This document shows positions 15,547 to 46,208 of a stretch of 64,000 nucleotides of DNA, in pieces. The notes beneath the pieces were generated by a model. It had not been told where the DNA came from and ran no database searches. It saw nothing but the letters and a program-made list of their open reading frames with translations. The stretch comes from Candidatus Aminicenantes bacterium (GTDB lineage: Bacteria; Acidobacteriota; Aminicenantia; Aminicenantales; Saccharicenantaceae), in the NCBI GenBank assembly GCA_963784525.1, contig CAWART010000015.1, forward strand, positions 1,672 through 65,671, in the 5' to 3' direction. Numbering within the stretch: the first letter of the stretch is position 1; every line of letters begins with the position of its first letter. Made by a program: the position numbers and the translations under genes.

Positions 15547-16557
15547 ATGAACGTTCTGATCACCGGCATCACGGGGTTCGTCGGGGGGCACCTCGCCAGG
15601 GCTCTTGACGCGACGCCGGAGGCGCCCGTCGTTTTCGGCACGACCTTCCCCCAGGCCTCGCCGGCCGGCGCCGGCAGCGTTCATTACCTCGACCTCCGGA
15701 TCGAATGCGACGTCCGCGCCCTCGTCCGCCGGATCCGCCCGGACCGGGTGTTCCATCTGGCGGCGGTTTCCAACGTCCGCAGTTCATGGCAGGCGCGGCA
15801 CGAGACCCTCGAAACCAACATCCTGGGCACGCACAACCTGCTCGAGGCCGTCCGGCTGGAGGCACCGCGGGCGCGCGTCCTGTTCGTCAGCTCGTCGGAC
15901 GTCTACGGCGTCGCCGCGGAGGGGGAAGCGCCCCTGTCCGAGGACCGGCAGGTCCGGGTCACCAATCCGTACGCCTACTCGAAGGCGGCCGGCGAGATGA
16001 TGTGCGGTTTCTACGAGAGGATCGAGGACCTGGATATCGTCGTCGCCCGTCCGTTCCCGCATACCGGGCCCGGACAGGCCCCGGATTTCGTCTGCGCCGA
16101 CTGGGCGCGGCAGATCGTCGGCATCGAGCGCGGCGAAGCGGAGCCGGTCCTGCGCGTCGGGAACCTCGACGTGAGGCGCGATTTCAGCGACGTCCGGGAC
16201 GTCGTCGAGGCCTATGCGGCCCTCATGCAGAAGGGAAGGCGCGGCGAGGTCTACAACGTCTGCTCCGGCAGGGCGCTCGCTTTGCGCGAGGTCCTGGATT
16301 TCCTGCTCGGCGAGGCGCGGCCGGAGGCGCAAGCGGCCGGTTCGGACACAGGAACGGGAAAGGGCAGGGGCTCCTCGGAGGCCTCCCCGATCCGCATCGA
16401 GGTCGATCCCGCCAAGCTCCGGAAGACCGATACCCCGCTTCTCATCGGCGACAACAGCAAGATCATCGCGGCGACCGGCTGGTCCCCCCGTATCCCCATC
16501 GCCCGGACCCTTCGGGACCTTCTCGGCCGCCCGGGCCCGGTAATGTTGAATAGTTGA
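15547..16557 (+). CDS. Second Rmd/Gmd-like SDR (tandem paralog)
   Basis: ITGITGFVGGHL, SSSDVYG, NPYAYSK and GNLDVRRDFSDVRD. Confidence 0.85.
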   Translation: MNVLITGITGFVGGHLARALDATPEAPVVFGTTFPQASPAGAGSVHYLDLRIECDVRALVRRIRPDRVFHLAAVSNVRSSWQARHETLETNILGTHNLLEAVRLEAPRARVLFVSSSDVYGVAAEGEAPLSEDRQVRVTNPYAYSKAAGEMMCGFYERIEDLDIVVARPFPHTGPGQAPDFVCADWARQIVGIERGEAEPVLRVGNLDVRRDFSDVRDVVEAYAALMQKGRRGEVYNVCSGRALALREVLDFLLGEARPEAQAAGSDTGTGKGRGSSEASPIRIEVDPAKLRKTDTPLLIGDNSKIIAATGWSPRIPIARTLRDLLGRPGPVMLNS

Positions 16558-23085: not shown

Positions 23086-23751
23086 ATGCGCGCTTCACGT
23101 ACGGTCGCCCCGGGTCTCCCCCATCACGTGCTCCAGTACGGAAATTACGGCCACCGTGTGTTCGAGGACGCCGGCGATTATGAACATTATCTCGGCTGGC
23201 TCGCCGAATACTGCCGGCGTTTCGGCGTCGAGATCTGGGCCTATTGCTTGATGCCGAACCACGTCCATCACGTCTGCGTCCCGGGAACAGAAACCGGACT
23301 GGCCCGAACCTTCAATGCCCTGCATATGCGCTACGCACAGTACTTCAACCTGAAGCGCAATCTTCAGGGACATCTCTGGCAGGGGCGCTTCTATTCTTCC
23401 ATCCTCGACGACCGGCATGCTTATGAAGCCGTGCGCTTTGTCGAAACAAATCCCCTCCGCTGGCGCCTCGTCAACGAGGCCCAGGCTTATCCCTGGTCGA
23501 GCGCCCGGAGTCATGCCGCGGAGGCGGCCGATCCGGTGCTCCAGTCCGCCTGTCCGATCAAGGCCCGCGCGGGGGACTGGACCGTCTATCTGCAGGGGCC
23601 CGCCGATATCGCCGCGGTCGAGGCGCTCAGAAAGAACATGAAATCCGGAAAGCCCTGCGGGGACCGGGAGTTCGTCCGGGCTCTTGAAAGCATGTTGAGC
23701 CGGGACTTGACGGTCAGGCCCAGAGGAAGGCCGAGAAAGGTGGTCGCATGA
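23086..23751 (+). CDS. REP-associated tyrosine transposase (RAYT, Y1/HUH) homolog with apparent catalytic Tyr->Phe
   Basis: PGLPHHV, AYCLMPNHVH (HUH), GHLWQGRFYS, VRFVETNP (family form RY[IV]ExNP), YPWSS and C-terminal RGRPRK. Confidence 0.88.
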   Translation: MRASRTVAPGLPHHVLQYGNYGHRVFEDAGDYEHYLGWLAEYCRRFGVEIWAYCLMPNHVHHVCVPGTETGLARTFNALHMRYAQYFNLKRNLQGHLWQGRFYSSILDDRHAYEAVRFVETNPLRWRLVNEAQAYPWSSARSHAAEAADPVLQSACPIKARAGDWTVYLQGPADIAAVEALRKNMKSGKPCGDREFVRALESMLSRDLTVRPRGRPRKVVA

Positions 23752-42743: not shown

Positions 42744-43642
42744 ACGAGGGCTTCGGGCACGGAATGGGTTGGCTCCCTGATCATCCGGATCTCCGCGACT
42801 ATACGACGGAAACGGCGGAGGTCAGGGCGATCTTCACGGGACGAAAGGGCGCGGCGCCGGGGCGGGGGCCCCGGAAGCGGGCCTCGGCGCCCCCCGCATC
42901 CGTCGACATCCGCGAGTGGTGCTCGCCCGTGGAGGACCAGGGGCGGCTCGGGTCGTGCACCGCCAACGCCGGGGTAGGGGTCATCGAGTATTACGAGAGG
43001 CGGGCTTTCGGCCGACATGTCGAGGCCTCGCGGCTCTTCCTCTACAAGGTCAGCCGGAACCTCATGAAGCTGAAGGGGGACACCGGCGCCACCCTCCGGA
43101 CGACCATGGGAGCGATGGTCCTCTTCGGCGTCCCGCCCGAGGAGCACTGGCCCTATTCCGACGCCGGAGAGGTGTTCGACCGCGAGCCGTCGGCCTTTTG
43201 CTACGCATTCGCCCAGAACTGCCAGACCATTAAATATTACCGGCACGACCCTCCGGGGAGCCCGGCGGAGCAGGTCCTCGCCCGCGTTAAATCGGGCCTC
43301 GCGGCCGGCCACCCCGCCATGTTCGGATTCACGGTCCACGATTCCATCGGGCAGGCAGACGCGACGGGCCGGATCCCCTTCCCCGGCCCGCGGGAGCGGG
43401 TCGAAGGCGGGCATGCCGTGGCCGCGGTCGGCTACGACGACGGGATGCGCATCGAGAACGCCGGGGGCGGGACGGAATCCCTCCGAACCGAGGGCGCCTT
43501 CCTCATCCGGAACTCCTGGGGCGCGGCCTGGGGCGAGAGCGGCTACGGCTGGCTGCCGTACGCCTATGTCCTCCGCGGCCTCGCCGAGGACTTCTGGAGC
43601 GTCCTCAAGAAGGAATGGATCGACACGGGCGAATTCACCTGA
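42740..43642 (+). CDS. Papain-like C1A cysteine protease
   Basis: GWLPDHPDLRD, DQGRLGSCTANA (Gln and Cys), GGHAV (His) and IRNSWG (Asn); no signal peptide. Confidence 0.93.
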   Translation: MNEGFGHGMGWLPDHPDLRDYTTETAEVRAIFTGRKGAAPGRGPRKRASAPPASVDIREWCSPVEDQGRLGSCTANAGVGVIEYYERRAFGRHVEASRLFLYKVSRNLMKLKGDTGATLRTTMGAMVLFGVPPEEHWPYSDAGEVFDREPSAFCYAFAQNCQTIKYYRHDPPGSPAEQVLARVKSGLAAGHPAMFGFTVHDSIGQADATGRIPFPGPRERVEGGHAVAAVGYDDGMRIENAGGGTESLRTEGAFLIRNSWGAAWGESGYGWLPYAYVLRGLAEDFWSVLKKEWIDTGEFT

Positions 43643-43709
43643 GCGGTCCGGCCCCGACTTTTAACTTTATTTTCCTCTTCAAATGGGTTAAAAGTTAAGA
43701 CCTGACCCC
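43643..43709. repeat. Degenerate inverted doublet of the GGGGTCAGG family
   Basis: Left gcggtccggccccgacttttaac vs reverse complement of right ggggtcaggtcttaacttttaac. It fills the whole intergenic gap between stop 43642 and ATG 43710. Confidence 0.65.
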
Positions 43710-45110
43710 ATGTCGACCGAAAAAAGGCCTCTGGTAACGGTCGTGATACCGTGCTTCAACGCGCAGGGGTATGTCGGACGCGCCCTGCGGAGCCTGTTCG
43801 ACGATTGGTCGATCAAGGCCTGCGAGTTCCTGGTCGTCGATGGCGGGAGCACGGACTTAACGCGGAAGGAGGTCGGGGACCTGATAAATCCCCCCCTACC
43901 CCCCTTTTACAAAGGGGGGTCTCCCTCTCCCCCCATACCTCCCTTTAACAAAGGGGGGATTCCTTCTCCCCCTCTACCCCCGTTTATAAAGAGGGGACAG
44001 GGGCAAGACAGTCACCACCCTTTGGAAAGGAAGCGCTGGGGACAAGTCCGTTACCCCCCTTTGGAAAGGAAAGGTCGGGAGCAGAGCCGTTATCCCCCTT
44101 TGGAAAAGAGGGGCCTGGGGCAGGACCGTTACCCCCCTGTGGAAAAGAGGTGCCTTGGGAGGGAACCGTTACCCCCCTTTGTAAAAGGGGGGCCTGGGGG
44201 GGATTTCTCTCCCGACGACGTTCTCTGGTTCGCGCCGTCGCGCGGGACCTGGGTGCGCCAGCCCCGGGAGAGCGACCGCTACGAGTGGAACCCTCCTGTC
44301 GGAGGGCGGCGGCGGCCGGTCATCCGCGTCGTCGACAATCCCTTCCGATATGATTCACGCGGCCTGAATATCGGGATCCTGGAGGCCCGGGGCGCCTATA
44401 TCGCCCGGGCGGACGCCCGGGCGACCTACGCGCCCGGCTACTTGAGGCGCTGCGTCGAGCTTCTCGAACAGAAGGAAGCCGCCAACGCGGGCGGCATCGA
44501 GGTCCCCGTGGCCGGGAAGGGGCGGCAGGGGGAAGCCGTCGCCCTGGCCCTCTGCCATCCCCTGGCCGGCCGCTCCGCGAAGTCCGGATATTCCGGATAT
44601 GCCGCGAGCGCCGAGTCAGGGACGTACCGGAGGAAGCTCTTCGACGAACTCGGCATGTTCGACGCCAAGGCGAAGGCCGACGAGGCCTTCGAAATGAACG
44701 TCCGCATCGTCCTGGCCGGACGGAAGATCTGGGTGGACGGCGGCCTGAAGGTATTCCGCGAAGTCCCGGCGACCTTCGGAGAGCTGGCCCGGTTGTATTT
44801 CCGGTATGGAAGGGGGCGCGCCCGGACGGCCAAGCGGCACGGGATGTTCACGAGCTGGCGGCAGATCGCGGCGCCTTTCCTCATCGCCATGATGGGCTTC
44901 TCCATCGTCCGAAGCTTCAAGGCCCCGTTCCATCTCCTGTTCTTCGCGGCCTACGCGGCGGCGGTGCTCGCGGCTGCCCTCGTCGGGCCCGCGACGGAAG
45001 GCTCGGATGCCGCGGGTCTCGCGACGCGCGTCGTCGCGGCCGCGGCCCTCATGACCATGCATGTGGCCTGGGGCGCCGGATTCCTCTGGGGCCTCGCGGC
45101 CGATTGGTGA
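43710..45110 (+). CDS. Glycosyltransferase family 2 (ExoA-like) carrying a large in-frame repeat insertion
   Basis: VVIPCFNA, VVDGGSTD, [insertion], VVDNP...GLNIGI..ARG, LARLYFRYGRGRA and C-terminal TMs. Confidence 0.82.
   Translation: MSTEKRPLVTVVIPCFNAQGYVGRALRSLFDDWSIKACEFLVVDGGSTDLTRKEVGDLINPPLPPFYKGGSPSPPIPPFNKGGIPSPPLPPFIKRGQGQDSHHPLERKRWGQVRYPPLERKGREQSRYPPLEKRGLGQDRYPPVEKRCLGREPLPPFVKGGPGGDFSPDDVLWFAPSRGTWVRQPRESDRYEWNPPVGGRRRPVIRVVDNPFRYDSRGLNIGILEARGAYIARADARATYAPGYLRRCVELLEQKEAANAGGIEVPVAGKGRQGEAVALALCHPLAGRSAKSGYSGYAASAESGTYRRKLFDELGMFDAKAKADEAFEMNVRIVLAGRKIWVDGGLKVFREVPATFGELARLYFRYGRGRARTAKRHGMFTSWRQIAAPFLIAMMGFSIVRSFKAPFHLLFFAAYAAAVLAAALVGPATEGSDAAGLATRVVAAAALMTMHVAWGAGFLWGLAADW
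43886..44206. repeat. 321-bp palindromic element: 8 x 39-bp units bounded by ~35-bp terminal inverted repeats
   Basis: Left end aaatcccccccta-ccccccttttacaaagggggg vs reverse complement of right end aaatcccccccaggccccccttttacaaagggggg; 13-aa periodicity in the translation. Confidence 0.9.
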
Positions 45111-45111
45111 C

Positions 45112-46208
45112 ATGGGTTCCAAAAAGAAGCGAACTCCCCGGGAGCGAACGCGGCGAACGCTCGCCGTCATCATCGCCGCGGGATTCACGGCCCTCGCCCT
45201 GTGGATAAGCCTCCGGGGCGTCGATTGGGCGGCGGTCGGCAAGGCCCTTGCCGGGGCCGACTATCTGCTCGTCGCGGCGGCCGTCGCGCTTTCTCTCTTC
45301 GGGGTCAACGTCCTCGGCTGGCGCTGGCGCATCCTGCTGTCCCCGAGGATCCGCCCGTCGCTCGGGCGGCTCTATCGTTGGAACATCCTATCGCAGTTCG
45401 CGAACATCCTCGTTCCGGCCCGGACGAACGAGCTCCTGCGTCTGGCTGACGAGCGTCGAGGGCGGGACGGAGGCCGGCTTCGCCCTGGGAACCCTCGCCG
45501 TGGAGCGGGTCTTCGATTTCGCGGTCTTCGCGGCCGCGCTGATAGCGGGCCCGCGGTTTTCGGCCTGGGGAGAGGGATCTTCCCGCCGGCCGCGGGATCT
45601 GCGGTCGGCGTCCTGGCGCTGGCGAGCCTGGCCGTGCTCGTGGGACTCGTCGTCCGGCCCGCCGTATTCCTCAGGATGGCGGAGGTCGTCTCCCGGTTCC
45701 TGCCGTCTGCCTGGCGGACCAAGGTGAACGCGTTTCTCGGGCACGCCGCCGACGCCTTCACGCCTCTCCGGGACGTCAGGGTCGCGGCGGCGGTTTCCCT
45801 CTATTCGGTGTTCATCCTCTTCCTCCAGCTCGTGATGATGGTCATCATGTTCCGCGCCTTTCACCTCGATCTCGCCTTCGGGGCCGCGCTGTTCACGACC
45901 TTCGCCCGGTCGATCGCGAACTTACCGCCCGCCGCCCCCGGCAGGATCGGTATCTTCGAAGTCTCGATCATCACCGCCCTGGCCGCTTTCGGCGTGCCCA
46001 GGAGCGAGGCGCTCGGCCTGGCGATCGTCCTTCACCTCGTCGCCCATATTCCAGGATCGCGCTGGGCGCGATATTCCTGAGCGTGGAGCCGGTCCCGCTC
46101 TTCGCGCCTTCCAGGGTCGCGAAGGAGGTCCGCGCGGCCCGGGAAGAGGACGCGGGCAAAGGCCCCCGGCCGGAGCAAGGGTCCCCCGGAGACGGGCGGA
46201 ATCCCTGA
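45112..46208 (+). CDS. YbhN / lysylphosphatidylglycerol-synthase TM (flippase-like) protein, frameshifted
   Basis: WRWRILL, FANILVPAR.NELLR, VERVFD (other frame) and PAAPGRIGIFE. Confidence 0.78.

Follow-up and report, generated by a model that had tools for sequence, protein, structure and literature searches.

A palindromic array of C6T3 repeats in frame within a putative glycosyltransferase gene of a Candidatus Aminicenantes genome

The window analysed here is a stretch of 64,000 nt from the genome of a Candidatus Aminicenantes bacterium (contig CAWART010000015.1, assembly GCA_963784525.1). It contains a gene for a family-2 glycosyltransferase (GT2), and within the coding region of this gene lies a 321-bp palindromic array of short repeats, here called C6T3 units. 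The open reading frame (ORF) of the gene runs through the whole array without a stop codon. The gene, the array and the parts of the array are listed in Table 1.

Table 1. The glycosyltransferase gene, the palindromic array inside it and the units of the array, in window coordinates
Feature	Position	Strand	Basis
Host gene, family-2 glycosyltransferase with C-terminal membrane part	43710..45110	+	ORF, 466 aa including the insert
In-frame palindromic array, eight 39-bp units, 107 codons, residues 59-166	43886..44206	+	sequence, ORF, repeat finders
Left terminal unit, forward: AAAT-C7 (third block), TA, CCCCCCTTT, loop, AAAGGGGGG	43886..43919	+	nhmmer 41.5 bits
Six inner decayed units: 2 forward, 4 reverse	43920..44171	+	nhmmer 10-22 bits; period 39; 13-residue register kept
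Right terminal unit, reverse: CCCCCCTTT, GT, AAAAGGGGGG, CCT, G7-ATTT (third block)	44172..44206	+	nhmmer 40.7 bits, minus strand

The array consists of three forward units followed by five reverse units, and the centre of the palindrome lies near 43995-44015. Tandem Repeats Finder reported a period of 39 for two blocks, with 2.8 copies at 43889-43998 (80% matches) and 5.4 copies at 43988-44199 (77% matches). The core motif CCCCCCTTTNNAAAGGGGGG, allowing up to two mismatches, has 5 matches in the window, all within the insert, and a mean of 0.00 in 100 shuffles. Scores of the unit model along the array were 42, 22 and 11 bits followed by 11, 16, 10 and 41 bits, i.e. seven of the eight units reached at least 10 bits. 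The original prediction for this locus, made from the sequence alone, had described intact outer and decayed inner units, which these scores bear out (41-42 versus 10-22 bits), and also two subtypes of units, which proved to be the two orientations of one unit. The near-perfect terminal inverted repeats of 34/35 bp described there exist as arms of 34 nt (43886-43919) and 35 nt (44172-44206) that differ only in a 2-3-nt spacer (TA versus AGG), and the number of matching positions had to be corrected to 32. Without gaps, the repeat finder aligned the arms with 76% identity over 37 nt. The longest homopolymer runs in the array are C7 and G7. As RNA the array is predicted to form a single long hairpin of -173 kcal/mol (z -3.7, hairpin folding only).

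A six-frame check of the 321 bp, corresponding to 107 codons, counted no stops in the frame of the host gene and 1, 2, 5, 2 and 3 stops in the other five. The eight 13-residue blocks listed earlier are found in the translation of the ORF, and deletion of 43886-44206 restores the reading frame as had been claimed (...CTG AT/C TCT CCC GAC GAC GTT, encoding DLISPDDV).

The host protein was assigned to GT2 by Pfam family PF00535, which matched residues 10-59 to profile positions 1-49 with 56.4 bits, above the gathering score of 23.3. A match to PF13632 at residues 241-419 stayed slightly under its cut-off (25.6 versus 27 bits), and no NCBIfam equivalog reached its cut-off on the host protein, the best one being MftF with 44 bits against 280. 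The solved GT2 structure 6P61 aligns with the host protein in two stretches, residues 4-52 (up to and including GSTD) and 205-239 (IRVVDN...RADA). Between these two stretches 6P61 has 9 residues and the host protein 152, namely the 107 of the array and about 45 others. Pfam and the structural alignment agree with the earlier placement of the array between DGGSTD and VVDNP of a GT2 enzyme. In the GT-A topology this site belongs to the helix-loop segment between strands beta2 and beta3, which points away from the nucleotide-sugar site. The array would accordingly be placed between beta2 and beta3 of the GT-A fold, based on the alignment and textbook topology.

Orthologues were searched with the host protein in 61 related genomes including the source genome (G000), giving 9 matches at E <=1e-20, among them G000 itself. 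In the syntenic loci of G001, G003, G007 and G006 a papain-family peptidase gene lies upstream in four out of four cases, and in G001 and G003 an LPG_synthase_TM / flippase-like membrane-protein gene follows the GT2 gene. The G001 orthologue (77-78% identity) carries an array at identical junctions, CTGAT/AAATCC...GGGGATTT/CT. This array has five units in 204 bp, equal to 68 codons in the same 13-residue register; its palindrome centre and end units correspond to those of G000, which has three extra inner reverse units. Because one unit equals 13 codons, the change from eight to five units leaves the frame intact. In the G003 orthologue (68-69%) a single double-tailed unit is found in frame among other loop residues. 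A search with the exact unit pattern lands on these GT2 loop positions in both G001 and G003. The orthologues of G007 and G006 (46-48%) are free of C6T3 units and have a loop of variable length at the site. The G006 loop contains, also in frame, an exact copy of a second repeat, a GTAG-headed repetitive extragenic palindrome (REP; L005). The presence of two unrelated repeat families at this site in different congeners marks the loop as a recurrent landing pad.

Selection on the gene was estimated with the Nei-Gojobori method. Outside the insert dN/dS was 0.28 for G000-G001 (dS 0.38), 0.37 for G000-G003 and 0.40 for G001-G003, with dS ranging from 0.38 to 0.47 among the three; within the insert the G000-G001 value was 0.69. 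In the five-way alignment 168 columns are invariant, and they lie to either side of the insert; none of the five orthologues contains a stop or frameshift. The insertion is therefore of the coding palindromic kind known from the Rickettsia palindromic elements (RPE), i.e. in frame, free of stops and located in a gene under purifying selection. The earlier suggestion of an array tolerated as a Pro-rich loop is strengthened by this comparison, given the in-frame inserts of five units or one unit at the same place in two congeners and the flank dN/dS of 0.28.

Independent contigs were used to examine the insert itself. Six sequencing runs, none of them registered as RNA, contain parts of the stretch, and the Logan contigs of four of them were compared, with the inner units partly uncovered. 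The left junction is bridged by a contig of 226 nt in run X3 and by one of 151 nt in run X5, which comes from another study, and the right junction by a contig of 242 nt in run X2. The insert is neither an assembly artefact nor the mark of a pseudogene. A collapsed or chimeric repeat produced by assembly might have been suspected as short-read contigs break at the terminal units and contigs of other copies pile up there. We regard this as extremely improbable, with both junctions bridged in other runs, the same junctions present in the independent genome G001 and a unit at the same site in G003.

No contig of the four runs joins the flanks across the insert. This bears on the proposal, made in the original prediction, that the insert is removed at the DNA or RNA level; in a wider form, it would be taken out before the protein works, be it by site-specific excision from the DNA of some cells, by RNA processing or by splicing of the protein. 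An exact cut at the AAAT...ATTT ends would restore the Ile codon and the frame, the RNA could form the long hairpin mentioned above, and a nuclease gene is associated with the repeat family (see below). On the other hand, Rfam gave only sub-threshold chance matches for positions 43000-45500 (E <=1), the best intron or ribozyme scoring 24 bits against thresholds of 45-59, and neither an intein nor any other Pfam domain was found in residues 59-166. Furthermore, removal does not need a kept frame or the absence of stops, yet both are kept in two species, and removal is therefore disfavoured. We judge it very improbable.

A further possibility is that the array serves the enzyme as an adaptive, length-variable Pro/Gly-rich loop, or as a contingency switch, that tunes or toggles its activity. 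The number of units differs between species (eight, five and one), C7 and G7 runs are present, and the loop, hypervariable as it is, contains another repeat in G006. The local instability linked to triplex motifs in E. coli points in the same direction (PMC4666352, in the sections available). Against this, the insert dN/dS of 0.69 indicates little constraint on the peptide, and a unit of 13 codons never switches the frame. The contigs of the four runs show no unit-number variants, none of them spanning the whole array. At 6-7 nt the homopolymers are on the short side for phase variation. With a 39-bp unit and no run longer than C7 or G7 the locus lacks the features of a phase-variable contingency locus, and one 1-nt deletion, described below, is too little to sustain the phase variation suggested earlier. 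An adaptive loop or switch thus appears unlikely to us.

The unit was characterized on 218 parsed units of the genome. It consists of CCCCCCTTT, a loop of 2-3 nt, AAA(A)GGGGGG, a loop of 2-4 nt, and GGGGGGATTT. The first block reads exactly CCCCCCTTT in 166 units and the third block exactly GGGGGGATTT in 146; loop 1 has 2-3 nt in 207 units, and loop 2 has 2-4 nt in 197, most often 3. Purine and third blocks have equal G-runs (6,6) in 151 of the 218 units. A one-sided tail was found on 208 out of 287 hairpins. Antiparallel purine-motif triads of the types G*G-C, A*A-T and T*A-T follow established rules. By these rules the third block could pair antiparallel on the purine block and form six G*G-C and additional A/T*A-T triads.

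This layout was compared with that of TMECO, also named BoxC or PIT, a G/C-rich motif of E. coli and other Proteobacteria. According to the available parts of Holder et al. 2015 (PMC4666352), TMECO has the consensus CCCTCNCCC N3-6 GGGNGAGGG N3 GGGNGAGGG and is a class II purine-motif intrastrand triplex of 9 / 3-6 / 9 / 3 / 9 nt. The same parts of that article, which also cite Hoyne et al. 2000 on triplex motifs, count 23 copies in E. coli MG1655, 'always located intergenically' and often in inverted pairs, and assign neither a function nor a mobilising enzyme to them (PMC4666352). The C6T3 unit shares the three blocks, i.e. a 9-nt pyrimidine block, its purine complement and a G-rich mirror third block. 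It also shares the distribution, being multi-copy, mostly intergenic, present in both orientations, often in inverted pairs and patchy among relatives. The sequence differs, as C6T3 / A3-4G6 / G6AT3 takes the place of CCCTCNCCC / GGGNGAGGG, so that the unit is not TMECO itself, and loop 1 is one base shorter than published (2-3 versus 3-6 nt). C6T3 units moreover build up long, polar arrays in tandem and border blocks made of other tandem repeats, and the GT2 array would be translated within a gene, while the TMECO copies of MG1655 are intergenic in the parts available (PMC4666352). From its sequence we would place the unit in the BoxC/PIT/TMECO 'intrastrand triplex motif' architecture as a new C6T3 subfamily.

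Other classes of small repeats were considered as well. The original prediction had spoken of a REP or MITE array (MITE, miniature inverted-repeat transposable element). A dispersed palindromic repeat array is confirmed; the unit itself is not a GTAG-type REP and probably not a classic MITE either, having a hairpin and a third mirror block. The column profile of 224 aligned units contains no GTAG or CGTC tag, as would be expected of a REP or REPIN, and the units end in AAAT / ATTT. As in MITEs, there are terminal inverted repeats of about 34 nt, no coding capacity and many copies. Unlike in MITEs, no target-site duplication was visible by eye at the flanks of 13 elements, and the only gene found between C6T3 units encodes a DUF559 protein, and there the units point the other way, their third blocks towards the gene. 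A transposase-bearing parent copy was not found, and no systematic search was made for one beyond PF01797.

A unit profile was built from 224 oriented units and used with nhmmer on G000, an assembly of 2.88 Mb in 23 contigs with 65% G+C and 74% completeness. This gave 427 non-overlapping matches, 321 of them with at least 20 bits and 229 with at least 30 bits. The units form 109 clusters, which together occupy 25.5 kb (0.89% of the genome). Units of at least 20 bits are found in both orientations (173 '+' and 148 '-'). Genes were called with a crude codon-usage caller, resulting in 2176 genes on 85% of the genome; relative to these, 83 clusters are intergenic, 14 overlap the edge of a gene and 12 lie inside ORFs. 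The search and this count confirm that the array belongs to a dispersed palindromic repeat family. One region of 57 kb (G000:C1:10000-67000) is unusually rich in arrays and holds 12 of the 109 clusters, mostly as whole intergenic spacers directly after gene ends.

In most of the 11 other ORFs with an internal cluster the repeat stands before the first or after the last Pfam domain, probably by over-extension of the ORF. L015, L016, L018 and L019 have no Pfam domain. In L017 (G000:C23:247668-250463) three units at 248915-249026 lie between a DAO+BFD part and a Pyr_redox_2 part of one open frame of 930 aa. Two neighbouring genes may have been joined here by the repeat, which might instead fill a short spacer in frame. 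None of the 11 ORFs is established as a true internal insertion. As the repeats of these ORFs lie outside or between domains or in ORFs without one, only the GT2 array clearly interrupts a recognised domain.

The arrays of G000 are polar, the outermost units having a mean of 34 bits (n=68) and the inner ones 26 bits (n=173). In typical clusters several forward units in a row precede a row of reverse units, and the GT2 array has the same anatomy. In other clusters a forward and a reverse unit enclose 100-700 bp of tandem repeats specific to the element, and some copies have 250-720 bp between their inverted ends. By eye, the tandem repeats inside such pairs have periods of about 25-50 bp that differ per element (C1:102570-102946, C1:375333-375684, C9:133252-133513, C9:205406-205659, C23:195237-195793 and others).

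On this evidence we consider it probable that the 321-bp block is a non-autonomous selfish array of C6T3 triplex-type units, which forms an in-frame, tolerated loop of a functional glycosyltransferase and has been inherited across species with length changes of whole units. Units of this type fill the intergenic DNA of the genus as polar palindromic arrays whose outer units stay intact while the inner ones decay. One such array probably entered the beta2-beta3 segment of the GT2 gene in an ancestor of G000 and G001, a segment already long and variable among these orthologues. Owing to the unit spacing of 39 bp (13 codons) and the stop-free host frame, it would be read through as a Pro/Gly-rich loop (PPxPPFxKGG...), which is probably disordered. 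Whole units would then have been gained or lost, presumably by slippage or by recombination between units, leaving the frame unbroken, and the enzyme has stayed under purifying selection.

The insert is most likely translated as a floppy loop of 107 residues. Several points weigh against the interpretation as a tolerated loop. An AlphaFold2 model from the five-sequence alignment was unusable (mean pLDDT 36.7), and the term surface loop draws on the alignment and textbook GT-A topology only. In one contig of run X2 (depth 3.6) a single nucleotide of the insert is deleted, at 44164, and this would break the frame if it is real. Across the genome there is no sign of selection for a period of 39 bp; neighbouring units are spaced 33-42 nt apart and multiples of three are not enriched (41 of 134 spacings, with 39 itself in 16 of 134). 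Avoidance of stops is likewise weak. Stops occur in 68 of 214 other parsed units in the NPP (forward) frame and in 28 of 214 in the PPF (reverse) frame, and an array put together at random from three forward and five reverse units would therefore be open in about 0.16 of cases, making the repeat intrinsically easy to read through. Selection screened which arrays could persist within a gene and did not design them. As to the triplex label, the available parts of Holder et al. 2015 report no stable triplexes in vivo even for TMECO (PMC4666352).

Two of these points, the 16% of random arrays that are open and the deletion in the low-depth contig, would also suit a gene that the array has inactivated and whose frame is open by luck. 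The site of the DxD motif, which reads D-A-R, D-A-G or D-A-H in the orthologues, would suit this as well. A dead gene is difficult to reconcile with the flank dN/dS of 0.28-0.40, with five orthologues free of stops and frameshifts and with invariant columns that are also found upstream of the insert. In addition, the length of the insert can be divided by 3 in G000 as well as in G001. We consider inactivation quite improbable and retain the tolerated, in-frame C6T3 loop as the preferred reading.

The exact unit pattern was counted in the related genomes, with 190 copies in G000, 120 in G001, 31 in G003, 31 in G006 and 47 in G007. It has 0 copies in G002, G004 and G005, which comprise 240-500 contigs each, and 0 in 53 genomes of other genera of the order; the reversed control gave 0 everywhere. 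Such a very uneven copy number in close relatives is also known from BoxC/PIT/TMECO. A scan across phyla, in which each species was represented by a single genome, gave at least 128 stretches with the exact pattern. The 80 of these that were examined carry labels of about 12 phyla, including Desulfobacterota/Deltaproteobacteria, Nitrospirota, Beta- and Gammaproteobacteria, Chloroflexota, Methylomirabilota, Planctomycetota and Deinococcota. Isolates among the same 80 are Chromatium okenii, Lysobacter sp. Root916, Iodobacter arcticus and Thiorhodococcus mannitoliphagus, and one 'Candidatus Aminicenantes' metagenome-assembled genome (L093) in this set has C6T3 units together with the same GTAG-REP.

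The only DUF559 (PF04480) gene of G000 encodes a protein of 115 aa (123 bits) similar to PDB 3HRL, an 'endonuclease-like protein'. In the region G000:C1:42076-43424 (L155 1101-2449) it is bracketed by two of the larger C6T3 arrays. The reverse units stop 68 nt upstream of it and the forward ones begin 15 nt downstream, the third blocks facing the gene. The third block (GGGGGGATTT) is also present in three tandem copies just upstream of the gene. Only 6 of the 2176 predicted genes of G000 have arrays within 100 nt to either side. The '- gene +' arrangement recurs at the full-length DUF559 genes of G006 and G007. No DUF559 match was found in G003 and G005.

In three genomes of other phyla, all six DUF559 loci (E <=1e-10) adjoin a triplex-type unit, four of them C6T3 and two, in two genomes, TMECO-like (L160, L161). 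This sample is not independent, as the genomes were chosen for carrying the unit. In E. coli K-12 a TMECO lies 165 nt past the 3' end of the DUF559 gene ycjD, with a fragment of the 3' end of a second DUF559 gene, a duplicate of the ycjD 3' end, between them, and the adjoining of DUF559 genes is thus common to C6T3 and BoxC/PIT/TMECO units. A further TM-like hairpin overlaps the stop codon of ycjD (L166, E. coli K-12 MG1655, 16200-16430). Among seven DUF559 proteins (that of G000 not included), too few for a conclusion, those with the same repeat type are 51-57% identical across hosts, versus 45-49% for two types within one host. A search of mostly open literature found no work linking DUF559 or YcjD with BoxC or triplex terms.

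These associations point to a wider scheme that we put forward tentatively. A selfish element of pan-bacterial range, with a small DUF559 (Vsr-like, PD-(D/E)XK) predicted endonuclease, may have the C6T3 units and their BoxC/TMECO cousins as its ends. The enzyme would cut at or near the folded unit, repair would copy the units to new sites, and the cassettes would cross phyla. Arrays without the gene, that of the GT2 gene among them, would be its non-autonomous offspring, surviving in genes when their period equals whole codons. G001 speaks against DUF559 as the mobiliser, having 120 units and only a DUF559 fragment, without units. If the scheme is true, DUF559 would be the mobilising enzyme of the BoxC/PIT repeats, which have been orphans since the 1990s. 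The occurrence of a 32-nt C6T3 unit in about 12 phyla and its close DUF559 neighbours make the spread of BoxC-type repeats testable at the bench.

In-frame palindromic insertions have been described before. In the available sections of Di Nocera, De Gregorio and Rocco 2013 (PMC3733652), RPE are in-frame palindromic insertions that add a peptide segment to apparently functional genes. The same sections describe GTAG- and CGTC-tagged REPs as small palindromes mostly downstream of genes, some of them lying wholly within ORFs as dimers or groups that encode 20-30 residues (PMC3733652). The strings CCCCCC and GGGGGG have 0 occurrences in that article. The GT2 array resembles RPE, by description only, in adding a peptide in frame to an apparently functional gene. 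It differs in being an eight-unit triplex-type array of a free-living sediment bacterium, with a unit number that varies between species, whereas RPE are single elements of an intracellular alphaproteobacterium. It differs from intragenic REPs in the missing GTAG/CGTC tag, in encoding 107 residues against 20-30, and in a Y1 transposase gene that is not flanked by C6T3 units.

The kind of event is thus already known from RPE and intragenic REPs, and the architecture from BoxC/TMECO. Within the literature searched, the C6T3 subfamily and its spread across phyla, the 107-residue coding array between GT-A core strands and the DUF559 association are new. No prior description of the C6T3 unit or of in-frame triplex-type arrays was found in this search, which covered mostly open literature and left out the supplementary ITxF lists of Holder et al., which may include the motif. 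Triplex-type repeats, intergenic orphans in print, can on the present reading be carried in frame, here between two core strands of a Rossmann-like fold, and persist through speciation with a changing number of units. When such genomes are annotated, Pro/Gly-rich 'PPFxKGG' stretches of predicted proteins would have to be taken as read-through repeat DNA and not as protein motifs.

The GTAG-headed REP (GTAGCC followed by a GCAGGC-N4-GCCTGC hairpin) has 27 strict copies in G000, versus 0 in the reversed control. Eleven of these copies have a C6T3 cluster no more than 300 bp away, and one copy is located at about 2743 of the window. Mobilisation of C6T3 by a REP-associated tyrosine transposase (RAYT) was considered and rejected, as the sole PF01797 gene has no C6T3 unit in the 1.7 kb around it; at 74% completeness of the genome a second copy could be missing. 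No REP was seen in these 1.7 kb either. This gene, the only Y1 transposase gene of the assembly (RAYT-like, IS200-like), is found at 23086-23751 (+) of the window and may serve the GTAG-REP family. Its neighbours are, from their translations alone, presumably a chain-length-determinant-like and a nucleotide-sugar dehydrogenase-like gene.

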